Positions 2,092 through 10,646 of a stretch of DNA of 10,646 bases are shown here, piece by piece. The translations under genes were made by a program, and so were the position numbers. This stretch comes from a virus, in IMG/VR virus record IMGVR_UViG_3300018015_000341; one strand, given 5' to 3'. Each line of letters opens with the position of its first letter. Position 1 is the stretch's first letter. Under the pieces are notes generated by a model. It saw only the letters and a list, made by a program, of their open reading frames with translations, did no database searches and had not been told where the DNA came from.

Positions 2092-2883
2092 TTATTCGCC
2101 TGTATCCCCATTGGCAACCTTTTCTCTAGTTCTATTTAGGGATATATCGTAGTAATCCTCTAGTTCTTGATTCGTGCCTCTCAACCCTTCCATGACCTTT
2201 TCTGTCCAGTCTAGATACTCAATAAATCTTTCTTTTGTCCAATCTGGACTAGAGTTTATATTGCTAATTTTGTCAGCAATTTTTATGAGCTTTGCACCAA
2301 CTGACCTACTGGGAGCATCTTCGATTTGTAACCGTTTTCTTTCTGCTTTTGGCAAACTCTTATCATCAGTAACTTCCATAACGAGATCTAATACTTCCTG
2401 ACCAAAGAGTGAAAAAATTTCCTCAGGTTTGGTGTCAGTATCTTCAATAATATCATGTAATATTTCAGCAACCAGTACTGGAATATATCTGACTTTTCCA
2501 ATTATCCAAAGTATACTCAAAGCTTCTAACGGATGGTTTATATATGGCAACTTATCCTTATCCTTTCTTCTCTGGTTGCGATGTTTGATGGCAGAAAATT
2601 CTACAGCCCTGATTATCTTGTCTAGATCATCATCGCTAAACGTTGTTACAATAGTTTTGTGTGTCATGCACGATTCTTGTTCTCTTCCAAGATTCTTGAA
2701 AACTTTGACTTCATCATTTCTCACAAAAATATGATTTTCTGTTATCTTGAACTCTTCTCCACACTCTGGACATTCTTCTATATTTCCTAAATCTTCATAT
2801 GCTTGTCTTAATCCGTCGTATACCTTGATTGTCTGTCCTTCACATTCCCATGACAAGCATATTAGCTCGAACTTATGACTCAT
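2092..2883 (-). CDS. MESH1/HDDC3-type small alarmone hydrolase ((p)ppGpp 3'-pyrophosphohydrolase of the RelA/SpoT HD-domain family). It carries an N-terminal ~80-aa Cys4 zinc-ribbon extension.
   Basis: The HD hydrolase motifs are near-identical to metazoan MESH1 and bacterial SAH: AIKHRNQRRKDKDKLPYINHPLEALSIL (His-Asp metal site), ILHDIIEDTDTKPEEIFSLFGQEVLDLVMEVTDDKSLPKAERKRLQIEDAPSRSVGAKLIKIADKISNI (ED/DTD motif plus the KLADRLhN-like helix). N-terminus: C-x3-C (CLSWEC) ... C-x2-C (CPEC). Stop is TAA (2092..2094). A GGAAG-like Shine-Dalgarno lies upstream of the ATG at 2881..2883. Confidence 0.88.
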   Translation of the reverse strand: MSHKFELICLSWECEGQTIKVYDGLRQAYEDLGNIEECPECGEEFKITENHIFVRNDEVKVFKNLGREQESCMTHKTIVTTFSDDDLDKIIRAVEFSAIKHRNQRRKDKDKLPYINHPLEALSILWIIGKVRYIPVLVAEILHDIIEDTDTKPEEIFSLFGQEVLDLVMEVTDDKSLPKAERKRLQIEDAPSRSVGAKLIKIADKISNINSSPDWTKERFIEYLDWTEKVMEGLRGTNQELEDYYDISLNRTREKVANGDTGE

Positions 2884-2928: not shown

Positions 2929-3702
2929 TTATCCTGAAATGGCTACTATTTCAATTTCTGGATCTGTCTGTTGTGTGTTTTGAGACAATTCCAGGGGGGT
3001 TTGGTTTTGTACAGCCATCTGATCACTTCTCTCTCCGGTAACTGTTTCAACTGTTTTTTCGATGGATTTAGCTGTTTCTTCATGTTCTTCTGCAGGTTTT
3101 GCCTTTTGTAAACCTTGCTCTTGATCTGCCTTTTGTAAACCTTGATCTTGTTCTGCCTTTTGTAAACATTGCTCTTGCTCTGCCCTTTGTTTGCACATAC
3201 GCAGATATTTTTCAGTGAATTCCATGCCTCTTAGTTCGTACCCTTTGAATATCCCTTTGTTTATTGTTGGATAATCTTTGCACTTTAGACATATGAACTT
3301 TATCGCAGGTCTTGGAGTACTGTTCTTATTATTGTCAGCAATTCTATCTATCTTTGTGACAACACTATATGTTTTGCATTTGTCACAAGGTAAAAGATGT
3401 CCTCTTCTATATTTCGTATGCTTTCCGTCTACCATACATTTGTTCTTGTGCTTCAGCGTACAACCGACAATAATGTCATGTCTGGAACAACTATCGCAAT
3501 CGTTTTTTATATCGTCATTTCTTAGATAATGTTCATTTTTTGGAAAATTTTCGTTTGGTAATAATTTCTTTTTTTCGTCTGTTACTATTTGGTCTATTAA
3601 AGACATTATAGCCTTTTCGAACGTTTCCACTCTACTTTTTTCGCCGTGACCAAACTCTATACATATATTATGCAATATTTCGGAATAAGACTTTTTTTCC
3701 AT
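2929..3702 (-). CDS. Hypothetical Cys-rich protein (257 aa). It has multiple C-x2-C zinc-ribbon-like pairs, then three in-frame 9-aa Q/E-rich repeats, then an acidic tail. Function unknown.
   Basis: Complete ORF with a strong Shine-Dalgarno: aaAAGGAGAGtaaaaaATG (ATG = revcomp 3700..3702). Stop is TAA. Cys pairs: CDSCS...GC...C, PCDKC, ICLKC. The repeat LQKAEQ(E/D)QG is encoded by 27-bp DNA repeats. Confidence 0.6.
   Translation of the reverse strand: MEKKSYSEILHNICIEFGHGEKSRVETFEKAIMSLIDQIVTDEKKKLLPNENFPKNEHYLRNDDIKNDCDSCSRHDIIVGCTLKHKNKCMVDGKHTKYRRGHLLPCDKCKTYSVVTKIDRIADNNKNSTPRPAIKFICLKCKDYPTINKGIFKGYELRGMEFTEKYLRMCKQRAEQEQCLQKAEQDQGLQKADQEQGLQKAKPAEEHEETAKSIEKTVETVTGERSDQMAVQNQTPLELSQNTQQTDPEIEIVAISG
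3101..3190. repeat. In-frame 27-bp tandem repeat, 3 full copies (3101-3127, 3128-3154, 3155-3181) plus a partial fourth, inside the 257-aa CDS.
   Basis: gccttttgtaaaccttgctcttgatct / gccttttgtaaaccttgatcttgttct / gccttttgtaaacattgctcttgctct, with 3-4 mismatches between copies. 27 bp is 9 codons, giving the peptide repeat ...QKAEQEQCLQKAEQDQGLQKADQEQGLQKA.... Confidence 0.85.
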
Positions 3703-3714
3703 TTTTTACTCTCC

Positions 3715-3740
3715 TTTTTTGTTATTCTTTTTTGTTATTC
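3715..3740. promoter_or_regulatory. Perfect 13-bp tandem direct repeat (ttttttgttattc x2; minus-strand GAATAACAAAAAA x2). It sits immediately upstream of the Shine-Dalgarno of the 257-aa gene and is a candidate operator or promoter element.
   Basis: Copies at 3715-3727 and 3728-3740. They share the core AATAACAAA with the repeat pair upstream of the ATPase gene (6477-6518). Confidence 0.4.
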
Positions 3741-3776
3741 TTTTCTGCAGATCAGTTTCGTATAAGTTCCATTATT

Positions 3777-3944: not shown

Positions 3945-6437
3945 CTAACTAAATAATATATTTTCAAATGCTTTTAAATATGGCATACCATTTATGTCTT
4001 CTGCAAACAATGGCATATATATCCTATTGATATCTGGATACATTTTATCAACCATATTTATGTATCTATTTTGGTGATTTCTTCTTGCTTTACAAAATGC
4101 ACAGTCAAGGTTTGACTGAATGTTATTTATCACCATGTTATTGACTTTTACTCCAGCACTATATAGACTTATGACCAGTCTTTTAGTTTCTTCTATTGCC
4201 ATTAAATCAGGAATAGTTACTATCAAGAATTCTGTTTTGTCTTTATCTGTAATCAGCGTGTGTGCCCTATATATGCTTGCACCCAAATTTTTTATAAATG
4301 TATCTATGTCACCAGTTCTTGCTCCCATCAGTTTCATTATACCTTTATATCTATTATGTAATCCTGAAAAGAACATCAGCCAACTATTTACAACATTTGG
4401 CGCTCCCAATAGTCTTAAAGTATGCCCAGTAGGGGCTGTATCAACACATATAGTTCTATATGAGTTGTTATCTATAAACTCTGATAATTTTACCAGGGAC
4501 ATAAATTCGTCTATTCCTGGTATTGTCAGGTCCATTGCATGATCTGCCTCTTTTTCATTTAAGTTGGCTGTCTTTGTAAGCAACTCTCTGATTGCTCCTT
4601 GATTTGCACCCTTGAATTCTCCCATAAGTTGGTCAGCGTCTATCTCAATTGCGTCCAGCGTGTTTGTTATTCTAGTTGGAGTATCTCCAATTTTTATATT
4701 GAACGAGTCACTTATAGAGTGAGCAGGATCTGTTGAAAACAACAATATCTTTCCTCTCTGTCCTGTTTGGACCAATCTTTCTGATAGATGTAAAGCTATC
4801 GTAGATGAAGTCGTAGTATTATGATTAATAATCGAATTCCCTATATATGAGTGGACATCGTCTATTGCCACATCGTACACTCTGATATTTTCATCCTTGA
4901 TCTCTGTTACATTGTCAGTTATGAACTGATCTGCTATCGTTTCCAAATATTCATACTCAGGCAAATACGATACAGGCTTCATTACTGAAAGTATGTGTCT
5001 TAGGGCATATACTGATGGCTGTCCTTTTGTTATATACCAATATATTAATTGTTGGTCATTTTTTAGATATGTTCTGCAACTGACGGATTTCTTCCTGTTC
5101 AATTTGAACATTTTTTCTCCTATAACAAAATCCTCTTGCCATTCTTGCACTATCTTTCCATTTTGACCTAGTATCTTTAATTCCTCATATAACTTATTTA
5201 AAATTTTTCCGATGTTACGATATGTAACATCTGACCATCTGTCTCTGTTTTCTAATATCTTGACACACTCGTTTAGAATTTCTTTTTTTCTTGAAAGACC
5301 GAAGTTTATTATTTCCGAGAATTTAAGTACTTCTCCTCCTAATATAATTAGTCTATAACTTTCTTCGTACTCTCTGATCTCTTCTCTATACTCAAGTTTT
5401 TTGGTACCTTTTTTGCTGGATAACCTTCCAACTATCCCAAAGTTTAATAGCATTATTTGTAATTGTCTACATAGCTCATACGATGAACTATTATATTCTA
5501 CATACTGGTGACTATCGTCACCATTTCCTACTGTTCCGTCACCATCGAATAATGCTCTTATAAAAGATATTTGGGAATCTCTGTCCGCTTGGAGGATGGA
5601 CCATGGGACCTCTTTGTTTTGCGCCAATTTTCTATATCCCAGATAGTACACAAACTCCTTAAAAGCCACAGAGTTTATGTCAACACCGACAAGTTTTTTA
5701 TCAACATATTTTTCACAAGCGTCTATATTGATTGATTTACATGTGGCTAATGATCTATCGATCATCTCTTTATCGTGGCTAGTTATAATAACACTGGTTG
5801 AATCGTCATTTGCTTCTGCAATTATATATCCCAACAATTCTGCTATATCAGGATTCATATAGCTTACATTTTTCAGCGTTTGATTTTCGCAGTTACTTTC
5901 CTTTTTTCTTTTATGGAAGAAGTTCAACTTCAATCTTTCATTAAAAACATTCATATTATATGATATGATTACTTGATCCGACGTAGAAATGTCTTGTAAT
6001 TTTTTAAATCTTAGTTTCCCATTTCCATCTATTATTATTATCCTATGCTCAGGCGTTCCTGATATTTCCAACCCAAGTCTTGTCTTTATGCTTATAACAT
6101 CGCTTTCTCCCATATCATATCTATCTATTATTTTATATTTGCTATAACTCAACTTTGGAGAAATCGATATTATATTATCGACATTCTTTATGTTATCGTC
6201 TTCTTCTTTTAGCATTTCATTAATGTCATCATCGTTTCTATCGTAGATACTGTCATATAGATTTGTCTGTCCACGATCTATATTTCTATTACTGAAATCT
6301 ATTTTCTTGTGAACAATGTCTTCAATCTTTATTATACCTCTATCGGTCAATATTAGAGTATTCCCACGCACACATTTACCAACCCCTCCCTTCCCTCCGA
6401 CAAATACCAATCTTTTATTTTCTAATGTTAATACCAT
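3945..6437 (-). CDS. Get3/ArsA-family (SIMIBI-class) ATPase precursor of 830 aa. The mature extein is about 311 aa. It is a single ArsA-type domain with a CXXC motif, like archaeal and eukaryotic Get3/TRC40. It is interrupted by a 519-aa intein inserted in the P-loop.
   Basis: N-extein: MVLTLENKRLVFVGGKGGVGK (deviant Walker A GKGGVGK). C-extein resumes with TTTSSTIALHLSERLVQTGQRGKILLFSTDPAHSISDSF (ArsA/Get3 STDPAHSLSD motif). It also has ...ICVDTAPTGHTLRLLGAP (the DTAPTGHT signature) and ...NLDCAFCKARRNH (CXXC). The Shine-Dalgarno is ctAGGAGActgaaattaaatATG. Stop is TAG (3945..3947). Confidence 0.88.
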   Translation of the reverse strand: MVLTLENKRLVFVGGKGGVGKCVRGNTLILTDRGIIKIEDIVHKKIDFSNRNIDRGQTNLYDSIYDRNDDDINEMLKEEDDNIKNVDNIISISPKLSYSKYKIIDRYDMGESDVISIKTRLGLEISGTPEHRIIIIDGNGKLRFKKLQDISTSDQVIISYNMNVFNERLKLNFFHKRKKESNCENQTLKNVSYMNPDIAELLGYIIAEANDDSTSVIITSHDKEMIDRSLATCKSINIDACEKYVDKKLVGVDINSVAFKEFVYYLGYRKLAQNKEVPWSILQADRDSQISFIRALFDGDGTVGNGDDSHQYVEYNSSSYELCRQLQIMLLNFGIVGRLSSKKGTKKLEYREEIREYEESYRLIILGGEVLKFSEIINFGLSRKKEILNECVKILENRDRWSDVTYRNIGKILNKLYEELKILGQNGKIVQEWQEDFVIGEKMFKLNRKKSVSCRTYLKNDQQLIYWYITKGQPSVYALRHILSVMKPVSYLPEYEYLETIADQFITDNVTEIKDENIRVYDVAIDDVHSYIGNSIINHNTTTSSTIALHLSERLVQTGQRGKILLFSTDPAHSISDSFNIKIGDTPTRITNTLDAIEIDADQLMGEFKGANQGAIRELLTKTANLNEKEADHAMDLTIPGIDEFMSLVKLSEFIDNNSYRTICVDTAPTGHTLRLLGAPNVVNSWLMFFSGLHNRYKGIMKLMGARTGDIDTFIKNLGASIYRAHTLITDKDKTEFLIVTIPDLMAIEETKRLVISLYSAGVKVNNMVINNIQSNLDCAFCKARRNHQNRYINMVDKMYPDINRIYMPLFAEDINGMPYLKAFENILFS
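4818..6374 (-). mobile_element. Intein (519 aa, residues C22-N540 of the precursor) carrying a LAGLIDADG-family homing-endonuclease domain. It is inserted between GKGGVGK and TTT of the ATPase P-loop.
   Basis: It has the canonical splicing blocks. Block A is Cys1 (CVRGNTLILTDRGIIKIEDI), with the Cys codon at 6372..6374. Block B is TxxH (GTPEHRI). Blocks F/G are VYDVAIDDVHSYIGNSIINHN, ending in HN with +1 Thr at 4815..4817. Two LAGLIDADG motifs are present: ELLGYIIAEAN (about 5808..5837) and FIRALFDGDGTV (about 5529..5564). Removing it restores a contiguous Walker A motif, GKGGVGKTTT. Confidence 0.85.
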
Positions 6438-6476
6438 ATTTAATTTCAGTCTCCTAGTTGTCGTAATTGAAATAGT

Positions 6477-10121: not shown

Positions 10122-10535
10122 TTAAAATTTTAACCTTGTTATCAATTCGGTAACTGTCATATTTGGTCCAGTTGATTTTTCTATAGAGTTCTCGTCAGTT
10201 TCGAACAGATCATAATGTTCACCAATTTCTACACTTAGTAAGCTAATTTTTTGATATGCTCCTATAATTTCTTCTTTTTTCCATACACCTTGAGAATCGT
10301 AATACTTGTCACCAATTCTCAACATCACATGATGTACCACTTTCTTGTCTAAATCTCCAACAACTGCTACAAGTTTGCCAATGTTAAATATTTCCTTTAA
10401 CAAGATCGCGAATATTCCACAATTGGTAGTTGTCAATTGTAACTCGTCTTTATTTTTTATACTATCTATAAACTCACGAATCTTATCTTGTTCCATACTA
10501 TACATTTTTCTTACCATCCTTATATTTCGATACAA
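10122..10535 (-). CDS. Hypothetical protein of 137 aa as called. The start is uncertain: a TTG is called at 10535, and in-frame ATGs at codons 7, 11 and 14 have AAGGA/GGATGG Shine-Dalgarno-like sequences.
   Basis: Open frame with TAA stop (10122..10124). No motif recognised. It lies immediately downstream of the 17-bp tandem array. Confidence 0.45.
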   Translation of the reverse strand: MYRNIRMVRKMYSMEQDKIREFIDSIKNKDELQLTTTNCGIFAILLKEIFNIGKLVAVVGDLDKKVVHHVMLRIGDKYYDSQGVWKKEEIIGAYQKISLLSVEIGEHYDLFETDENSIEKSTGPNMTVTELITRLKF

Positions 10536-10543
10536 AATTTTTC

Positions 10544-10646
10544 ATATTTCTTCATTCTTGATATTTCTTCATTCTTGATATTTCTTCATTCTTGATATTT
10601 CTTCATTCTTGATATTTCTTCATTCTTGATATTTCTTCATTCTTGA
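10544..10646. repeat. Perfect 17-bp tandem repeat (atatttcttcattcttg), six complete copies from 10544 to 10645. The array continues past the window edge, so the copy number is at least 6. It is iteron-like.
   Basis: The copies are identical: 10544-10560, 10561-10577, 10578-10594, 10595-10611, 10612-10628, 10629-10645. A unit length of 17 is not a multiple of 3, and every frame hits TGA on the minus strand, so it is non-coding. Confidence 0.95.

Follow-up and report, generated by a model that had tools for sequence, protein, structure and literature searches.

A probable class-1 homing intein in the P-loop of a Get3/ArsA-type ATPase from a Borg-like element

How can an ATPase be of use to its host when its ATP-binding loop is split by an insert of 519 residues? 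The question is raised by IMG/VR virus record IMGVR_UViG_3300018015_000341, a stretch of 10,646 nucleotides (the window, hereafter meaning the whole of it). A single long open reading frame (ORF) on its minus strand, at 3945–6437 in the ORF list of the window, encodes a Get3/ArsA-type ATPase precursor of 830 residues. Herein, the Walker A motif, or P-loop, breaks off after Lys21 at MVLTLENKRLVFVGGKGGVGK^CVRGNTLILT and resumes at YIGNSIINHN^TTTSSTIALH (^ marks the insertion point). A preliminary description, made from the sequence, had read the insert between GKGGVGK and TTTSST as a LAGLIDADG intein at 4818–6374. These bounds are exact, with Cys22 starting at 6374 and Asn540 ending at 4818 on the minus strand. 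At a probability of roughly 0.9, the insert is taken here to be a genuine class-1 homing intein seated between Lys21 and the following Thr of a Get3/ArsA-type ATPase on a Borg-like element, with splicing and DNA cleavage as its predicted activities.

Insert and flanks are recognized by different profiles. Pfam ArsA_ATPase matches precursor residues 541–828 (expectation value [E] 1e-65) at profile positions 15–303 of 305, and the 14 leading positions remain for the 21 residues that precede the insert. Pfam Intein_splicing covers precursor residues 71–540 (E 5e-15) and LAGLIDADG_3 residues 289–377 (E 4e-17), and the two ends of the insert score above the cutoffs of TIGR01445 (intein_Nterm; 38 bits vs 24.5) and TIGR01443 (intein_Cterm; 21.2 bits vs 15.6). 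Conceptual splicing yields a product of 311 residues in which the Walker A motif GKGGVGK-TT is whole, as the preliminary description had anticipated. Upon this removal, the score for TIGR00345 (GET3_arsA_TRC40; cutoff 135) rises from 214 to 245.9 bits, and the spliced sequence covers profile positions 1–297 of 299 without a break.

All intein elements that had been named beforehand (Cys1, TxxH, two LAGLIDADG motifs, the terminal HN, and the +1 Thr) can be located in the sequence. Their conservation and an AlphaFold (AF2) model were both based on 40 homologous sequences. In block A, residues C1, T10, G13, and K16 (intein numbering) are invariant or nearly so, with Cys1 (Cys22 of the precursor, directly after Lys21) present in 38 of the 40 homologs. 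Block B is formed by TPEH, that is, T107-P-E-H110 or precursor residues 128–131. H110, Y500, S509–I511, N513, N517, and H518 are invariant, and C1, T107, E187, D279, D501, H508, and N519 are conserved to at least 90%. The intein ends in H518-N519 and is followed by the extein Thr+1. Because of Cys1 and the TxxH motif, it is assigned to class 1. The N-terminal Hint half is interrupted by an acidic insertion for which the predicted local distance difference test (pLDDT) drops below 50 at intein residues 33–59. Both LAGLIDADG motifs carry their acid at position 8, namely E187 in LLGYIIAEA and D279 in IRALFDGDG. The accessory domain that follows is probably DNA binding, judged by comparison with the accessory domains of VMA-b inteins (PMC8966425).

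A search of PDB chain sequences with the intein gave nothing beyond a weak VMA-b match (E 7e-8). Hence, a fold search was needed to place it. The AF2 model of the intein (pLDDT 85.9, predicted template modeling score 0.86) finds TliVMA as the best PDB match in Foldseek (7qss; E 4e-20, template modeling [TM] score 0.72 on target). Further matches are PI-PfuI, PI-TkoII, and PI-SceI, which are endonuclease-containing inteins. Partial matches include I-DmoI, I-Tsp061I, and WhiA, in keeping with the duplicated alpha-beta-beta-alpha-beta-beta-alpha fold of LAGLIDADG endonucleases, as well as the mini-inteins Mtu RecA and Ssp DnaB. The curated intein models for RFC, VMA, DnaB, and GyrA score weakly at 23–50 bits. 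That the insert is a class-1 intein composed of a Hint domain, a LAGLIDADG endonuclease, and an accessory domain is almost certain. The features of the locus are compiled in Table 1.

Table 1. Position of the precursor gene, its intein, and their motifs within the window
Feature	Position	Strand	Basis
AGGAG, 13 nt 5' of the precursor ATG	6451-6455		
Precursor ORF, Get3/ArsA-type ATPase with intein	3945-6437	-	ORF list, sequence, Pfam and NCBIfam matches
N-extein, aa 1-21; beta-1 strand plus opening residues of the deviant Walker A (GGKGGVGK)	6375-6437	-	sequence; model strand 10-14 just before the insert
Intein, aa 22-540, class 1, Cys1...His-Asn then Thr+1	4818-6374	-	profiles, AF2 model, Foldseek
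Hint segment 1 with block A (CVRGNTLILTDRG)	6303-6374	-	TIGR01445 match
Acidic, mostly disordered stretch inserted into the N-terminal half of Hint, at intein residues 25-84	6123-6302	-	pLDDT, dN/dS 0.14-0.20
Hint N-terminal segment 2 with block B	5955-6122	-	H110/T107 conservation; beta strands in model
Block B TPEH	6045-6056		
Two-motif LAGLIDADG homing-endonuclease domain	5250-5897	-	Pfam LAGLIDADG_3, structural matches, dN/dS 0.08-0.13
LAGLIDADG motif 1	5811-5837		
LAGLIDADG motif 2	5535-5561		
Post-endonuclease accessory domain, intein residues ~376-480; helix, beta-hairpin, helices	4935-5249	-	confident model secondary structure; dN/dS 0.06-0.07
C-terminal Hint segment with blocks F and G (…RVYDVAIDDVHSYIGNSIINHN)	4818-4934	-	TIGR01443 match, conservation
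C-extein, aa 541-830 and stop codon	3945-4817	-	Pfam ArsA_ATPase, Get3 sequence alignments, Foldseek
Thr541 codon (+1 nucleophile), completes Walker A	4815-4817		
Switch II DTAPTGHT	4419-4442	-	
CxxC (CAFC)	4092-4103	-	

The extein was described beforehand as a single-domain Get3 of the archaeal/eukaryote-like type with a CXXC motif, and the comparison with proteins of known structure agrees. Among PDB sequences, the spliced protein scores highest with Chlamydomonas ARSA1 (221 bits), followed by Giardia, fungal, and archaeal Get3 (~153–162 bits), and exceeds 109 bits for Escherichia coli ArsA. The Walker A stretch GGKGGVGKTTTSS is the same in the aligned Giardia Get3, and CAFC aligns with CSMC of that protein. 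The flanks also rebuild the expected fold: The model of the full precursor (pLDDT 77) retrieves the TliVMA intein as well as Get3 structures, the latter with TM scores of 0.65–0.79 on target (Methanothermobacter thermautotrophicus TRC40, 3zq6; Methanocaldococcus jannaschii, yeast, Giardia, and human Get3; the first four at 0.69–0.79). Herein, the intein exits between strand beta-1 and the P-loop helix. In common with Get3/TRC40 (3zq6; M. jannaschii 3ug6; yeast 2woj; Chlamydomonas ARSA1 5zme), the extein has GKGGVGKTT, DTAPTGHT, an aligned CxxC, and a single domain of ~310 residues. In contrast to these solved proteins, to which it is only ~25–32% identical, it belongs to a separate clade. Outside this clade (≥65% identity), it reaches ~40% identity to ArsA-family proteins of mixed taxonomy. 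The term Get3-like is therefore used for fold and motifs of the extein, and a function is inferred from neither.

Whether the insert is a regular part of this ATPase subfamily can be answered by its close relatives. A search with the spliced sequence finds a tight family of intein-free orthologs of ~304–341 residues (311 in the closest), in which GKGGVGK[T/S]T is uninterrupted. The closest are P0067, P0068, and P0071 (P and L numbers denote proteins and loci or contigs of this analysis) with 93%, 91%, and 90% identity to the spliced extein; P0067 and P0071 have 311 residues each, which is the length of the spliced product. At the DNA level, the empty sites encode GGKGGVGK followed directly by TT or ST, in the form AAA^ACTACGATT (L009 type) or AAG^TCGACATCC (L008 type). 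A family-typical insertion is thus ruled out, and the earlier reading as an intein stands. The intein-carrying architecture recurs on eight more contigs from JGI, ENA, Logan, and NCBI, whose independence rules out an assembly artifact or chimera.

Presence and absence of the intein can be compared in nearly identical alleles. The exteins of intein-carrying P0004 (locus L010) and intein-free P0071 (locus L008) are 98% identical, and the two loci are syntenic with 88–98% nucleotide identity. Their alignment stops at the N-terminal junction and restarts ~10 nt past the C-terminal junction. The extein genes differ at 47 nucleotides in 936 nt, eight of which fall within the 18 nt directly 3' of the insertion site and none within the 36 nt 5' of it; ~0.9 differences would be expected by chance in 18 nt (Poisson P ~5e-6). 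Such a cluster is what recombination at the site would be expected to leave behind; co-conversion in homing, precise loss, or selection for a cleavage-resistant site could have caused it.

Regarding the element that carries the gene, the extein had been offered as a clue to the host lineage, and this clue can be sharpened to a resemblance with Borg elements of Methanoperedens archaea. All credible ORFs of the window lie on the minus strand, its GC content is 0.35, and the coding strand consists of 39.5% A, 25.5% T, 21.2% G, and 13.8% C. Borgs are reported to be coded on one strand at 25–35% GC, with a coding-strand composition of 38.4/28.8/20.3/12.5% in the same order (PMC9879509). The window also contains perfect (100% match) tandem repeats of 17 nt × 6.1 at 10544–10646, continuing past the window end, and of 13 nt × 2.4 in the intergenic stretch 3714–3744. 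A further repeat of 27 nt × 3.4 (3100–3190) lies inside the ORF 2929–3702 and encodes AEQ(E/D)QxLQK units. Judged from the sequence, these repeats match the type described for Borgs. In Black Borg, gene 663 is an intein-free ArsA ATPase of 312 residues, which is followed by ParB (410 aa), HhH-GPD (231 aa), and proteins of 29, 157, 123, 65, 35, 191, and 216 aa (PMC11208441). The 176-kb contig L012, with intein-free P0086, has exactly the gene sizes and order of Black Borg genes 663–672; a homolog (P0036) of the Borg AAA_28 + intein protein is found on the same contig. Farther along, locus L001 with intein-carrying P0006 agrees with Black Borg too, through the genes for MscS, NAD kinase, DUF356, UDG, thioredoxin, and a cation-efflux protein. 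The window itself is syntenic with L008 and L010. The case for a Borg-like element of Methanoperedens archaea is strong but indirect.

The one-strand gene layout had suggested a phage, but none of 50,697 phage records gave a megablast match to the window. When GTDB genome contigs were scanned with the intein-containing alignment, using patterns taken from the acidic insert, none of the 349 pattern matches was confirmed; these contigs evidently do not include Borg-like ones. A recent import of the intein from a different genome type is ruled out, since its GC content (0.326 vs 0.35 for the window) and third-position GC content (GC3; 0.31 vs 0.28) are those of the host and the synonymous divergence between copies is high.

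The intein is not confined to Get3. A search with the precursor finds proteins that match the whole 519-residue intein at 41–81% identity, and in all 38 full-length relatives with flanking exteins, it follows the Walker A Lys and precedes Thr or Ser. The junction reads GKGGVGK^TT in Get3, GP[PA]G[VA]GK^TA in the RFC small subunit (GAPGTGK^TA in P0014), GRAGIGK^TT in an RFC-large-like protein, PTG[SG]GK^T in SF2 helicases (with the variants TAAGK^S and TASGK^S), GSQSTGK^TT in an AAA_28 protein, and GPTGTGK^T and GKSGSGK^T in two unnamed ATPases. Two members beyond these 38 reside in a Helicase_C_2 protein at CGSGK^S. In an exhaustive HMMER comparison with 1.84 billion representatives, eight matched end to end, six at 373–462 bits and the two more remote members from the Helicase_C_2 protein at 249 and 225 bits; the generic LAGLIDADG inteins that follow lie below 250 bits and mostly at ~25–35% identity. 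By these searches, the family is small and sharply bounded.

Within the family, the inteins of RFC genes are the closest relatives of those in Get3 (66–83% identity; 68–73% to the intein of the window), and those in the other ATPases are 41–54% identical. The Get3 intein of P0008 is 83% identical to that of P0011 in RFC and 73% to that of the window, and P0008 and the RFC protein P0009 are found in the same two NCBI assemblies. In a neighbor-joining bootstrap tree on p-distances, only 2% of replicates group the Get3 inteins as one clade, and the earliest split separates the RFC intein P0013 (90% support). These findings point to RFC as the host of longer standing and to repeated exchange between Get3 and RFC. 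Given synonymous divergences of ~1 between Get3 and RFC copies, these exchanges are not recent. The site DNA is alike in both genes (GGG GTT GGT AAA^ACT ACG AC in the window and GGA GTT GGT AAG^ACT GCA AC in RFC), which is a plausible basis for off-target homing.

Some relatives deviate from the common arrangement. P0026 (516 aa) and P0030 (542 aa) are free-standing homologs of the whole intein (47–49% identity) without exteins or Cys1; they start with MGISGNT and MSVGDT, and P0030 ends in HD instead of HN. They may be a domesticated or free-living intein-derived endonuclease or artifacts of gene calling. The SF2 helicase P0015 contains a second, different intein near its C terminus (…GGGFVNHN^SPITF), and the SF2 helicase P0187 contains another large insert besides the P-loop intein. 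Hence, some helicases have been invaded multiple times.

Selection on the parts of the precursor was estimated as the ratio of nonsynonymous to synonymous substitution rates (dN/dS) by the Nei–Gojobori method on codon alignments of the window with three other intein-carrying alleles. With dS at 0.8–1.8 and thus near saturation, the ratios are rough, though far below 1. They amount to 0.06–0.16 for the extein in intein-carrying alleles, 0.09–0.13 for the whole intein, and 0.04–0.13 for the Hint segments, of which the C-terminal block was scorable in one comparison only; values for the remaining domains are given in Table 1. In the full-length comparisons, every measurable intein region, with that of the endonuclease among them, falls at 0.06–0.20. 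As the extein is under purifying selection while its P-loop is split, the host gene is evidently functional, which would require the intein to splice. This, together with the conserved splicing blocks, rules out a pseudogene. That the intein splices is accordingly very probable, and for a still active endonuclease the chances are about even.

In the proposed mechanism, the precursor would be translated whole with a split ATP site. An N–S acyl shift at Cys22, aided by Thr and His of block B, would yield a thioester that is attacked by Thr541. Cyclization of Asn540, aided by the penultimate His, would then free the intein, and an O–N shift would leave a 311-residue ATPase with an intact GKGGVGKTT P-loop. 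At the DNA level, the endonuclease (E187, D279) and the accessory domain would cut the Walker A–coding sequence of intein-free alleles, and recombinational repair would copy the intein into the cut allele, that is, homing. The predicted target (GGnGTTGGnAAR^ACT...) is similar to the corresponding DNA of other P-loop genes; by this similarity, the intein lineage would also have moved between nonorthologous ATPases.

Several points weigh against a homing intein on a Borg-like element. The assignment to Borgs draws on base composition, on repeats, and on a published gene table with which homologous loci are syntenic, and not on a direct sequence match to a Borg genome. In LAGLIDADG motif 1, the acid is Glu, and position 9 is Ala (AEA) as opposed to the canonical Gly. 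The dS between intein copies (~0.8–1.8) is as large as that of the extein, so that no very recent homing event is seen for the copy of the window. Among the relatives, the endonuclease shows decay: Motif 2 of P0007 reads FDSGGT, and in P0008 most of the accessory domain (~80 residues) is deleted. Hence, parts of the intein lineage may be past their mobile phase; the window's own copy is intact. Internal support in the neighbor-joining tree is weak (19–64%), which leaves direction and number of the transfers between Get3 and RFC unsettled. These decayed relatives, an intein dS close to that of the extein (0.97 and 0.87, respectively, between the window and L010), and a fully ameliorated GC and GC3 composition would also fit a splicing-competent but immobile intein. 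It would be an old, vertically inherited resident of Get3, whose endonuclease is kept as a scaffold for the Hint domain, a mutualism that has been proposed in the literature (PMC8966425), and whose intein-free alleles arose by precise loss. This alternative is possible but the less likely one. Endonuclease and accessory domain show dN/dS values as low as those of the extein, and both acids are kept. Moreover, the distribution of the intein departs from the extein tree, as seen for P0004 and P0071, substitutions are clustered beside the insertion site, and the spread of the family over at least seven to eight host genes needs past moves driven by endonuclease or recombination. Taken as a whole, selection on the endonuclease favors ongoing mobility, with the scaffold role as its alternative.

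Two other explanations concern splicing itself. The intein could be a domesticated switch, whose regulated splicing (by redox chemistry at Cys1 and nearby cysteines or by temperature) controls Get3 and other P-loop enzymes. Conditional splicing is documented for P-loop inteins of Pyrococcus RadA and mycobacterial DnaB (PMC4513877, PMC5790916, PMC6195587), most homologs start with Cys-Cys (CCKGNT), and purifying selection extends across the whole intein. However, no sequence feature points specifically to regulation, the copy of the window begins with CV and not CC, and close Borg alleles without the intein indicate that it is not required for Get3 function, which makes a switch improbable. Far less credible still is a nonsplicing insertion domain of an ATPase subfamily, a disrupted pseudogene, or an assembly chimera. 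Every splicing block is conserved, intein-free orthologs show the insert not to be family typical, extein dN/dS goes down to 0.06 in intein-carrying alleles, and the same architecture is found on independent contigs of four sources (JGI, ENA, Logan, and NCBI). The class-1 homing intein hence remains the favored reading.

Compared with known systems, the position is familiar and the host protein is not. For an intein placed after the invariant Lys and before the nucleophilic Thr, the name classic P-loop intein insertion is in use (PMC5050341), and RFC-S site a, MCM site a, and DnaB site b lie in P-loops (PMC4760082). The preliminary description had suggested a possibly new insertion site. This holds for the host, since full-text literature searches turned up no report of inteins in connection with Get3, ArsA, TRC40, or ASNA1, but not for the K^T site type, which already had its name. 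Precursor-type proteins are also already present in public metagenome databases, where they are labeled "arsenite-transporting ATPase." New is thus Get3/ArsA as host protein; known are the K^T P-loop site and spread from P-loop to P-loop. The list of classic P-loop sites that had been given with it (RecA, DnaB, VMA1, RFC) needs an amendment for VMA1: The yeast intein (VMA-a) sits ~20 residues off the P-loop, whereas archaeal VMA-b lies within it (PMC8966425).

The classic P-loop inteins (archaeal RFC-S a, MCM a, DnaB b, RadA, and mycobacteriophage TerL1-a) share with that of the window the GK^T point, class-1 chemistry, and Thr or Ser at +1 (PMC4760082, PMC5050341), and TerL alleles likewise occur with and without an intein. 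They differ in that the host here is Get3/ArsA and that close relatives of the window's intein are found only on Borg-like contigs. VMA-b inteins from Thermococcus litoralis and Pyrococcus horikoshii (7qss, 7qst) have the same P-loop site and a Hint domain with LAGLIDADG endonuclease and accessory domain (PMC8966425). They are, however, only 18–19% identical and have 376–432 residues as opposed to 519, and the intein of the window has the acidic disordered insertion and a different accessory domain. A spread between P-loops of nonhomologous proteins was reported in 2023 for the class-3 "cluster 1" inteins of Anaeramoeba (PMC10710043), likewise one lineage in the Walker A motifs of unrelated ATPases. 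In that eukaryote, the signal came from a tree of 115 aligned sites, whereas the family described here is of class 1, has a large endonuclease, resides on archaeal Borg-like elements, and shows 66–83% identity across hosts over ~520 residues. In Borgs, inteins have been listed as domain annotations only, for RFC subfam1492, AAA_28 subfam1168, and a DNA methylase (PMC11208441, PMC9879509). The Borg tables contain RFC genes with an intein between the halves of the ATPase domain and a 759-residue AAA_28 + intein protein with a NEENE repeat, which correspond in element type and domain architecture to the relatives found here. Unlike the present analysis, the Borg papers discuss neither how these inteins are related nor that they share a P-loop position.

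Apart from the precursor gene, the window contains a homolog of the major vault protein on the minus strand, reaching from 2010 to beyond the window edge (1–2010; MVP_shoulder 95 bits, Vault_3 41 bits). It is broken by one in-frame TAG at 1258–1260, where the orthologs in L008 and L001 have Glu (GAG) within the conserved AVTLERLEYCILL; the stop may stem from a nonsense mutation, a sequencing error, or recoding. Vault-protein genes stand beside Get3 also in L001, L002, and L008, and an 888-residue homolog exists in Orange Borg. A 263-residue protein (2092–2883, minus strand) has an HD_4 domain of the SpoT/MESH1-type HD hydrolases (E 4e-11) and an N-terminal Cys-rich segment resembling a zinc ribbon (CxxC…CPxC). 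A 137-residue ORF at 10122–10535 (minus strand) is borderline Phage_YunG-like (26.7 bits vs a cutoff of 27), and this family is weakly detected in L010. Rfam and tRNA scans of the window found nothing. In loci of the P0006/Black Borg type, a small heat-shock gene of the HSP20 or ArsA_HSP20 type, which the window does not have, lies just upstream of Get3 (L001, 7475–7936; L012, 4860–5330); this hints at a chaperone context for Borg Get3. TnpB/Cas12f-like (OrfB_IS605) genes are located a few kilobases from Get3 or AAA_28 intein genes (L001, 836–2500; L003, 4192–5964; L013, 1–107).

With Get3/ArsA, a type of ATPase for membrane-protein targeting and outside the usual replication and repair set joins the hosts of inteins. 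For annotation, this carries a warning, as the Borg "830-aa arsenite-transporting ATPase" is a protein of 311 residues plus an intein. One well-conserved lineage at the same Walker A position of at least seven to eight ATPases, including near-isogenic alleles with and without intein, provides a clean natural data set on host-gene switching. If the endonuclease is active, its tolerance for P-loop contexts would be directly measurable, and presence or absence of the intein could trace recombination among Borgs. More tentatively, Borgs might carry their own actively homing intein lineage, whose endonuclease recognizes the generic Walker A–coding sequence GGnGTTGGnAAR^ACN and not one particular gene. 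If this is true, such an intein could move inside a Borg and to co-resident Borgs alike, colonizing Get3, RFC-S, RFC-L, SF2 helicases, AAA_28, and further P-loop genes. It would then represent a natural motif-targeting homing endonuclease and a marker of Borg recombination in one host cell.

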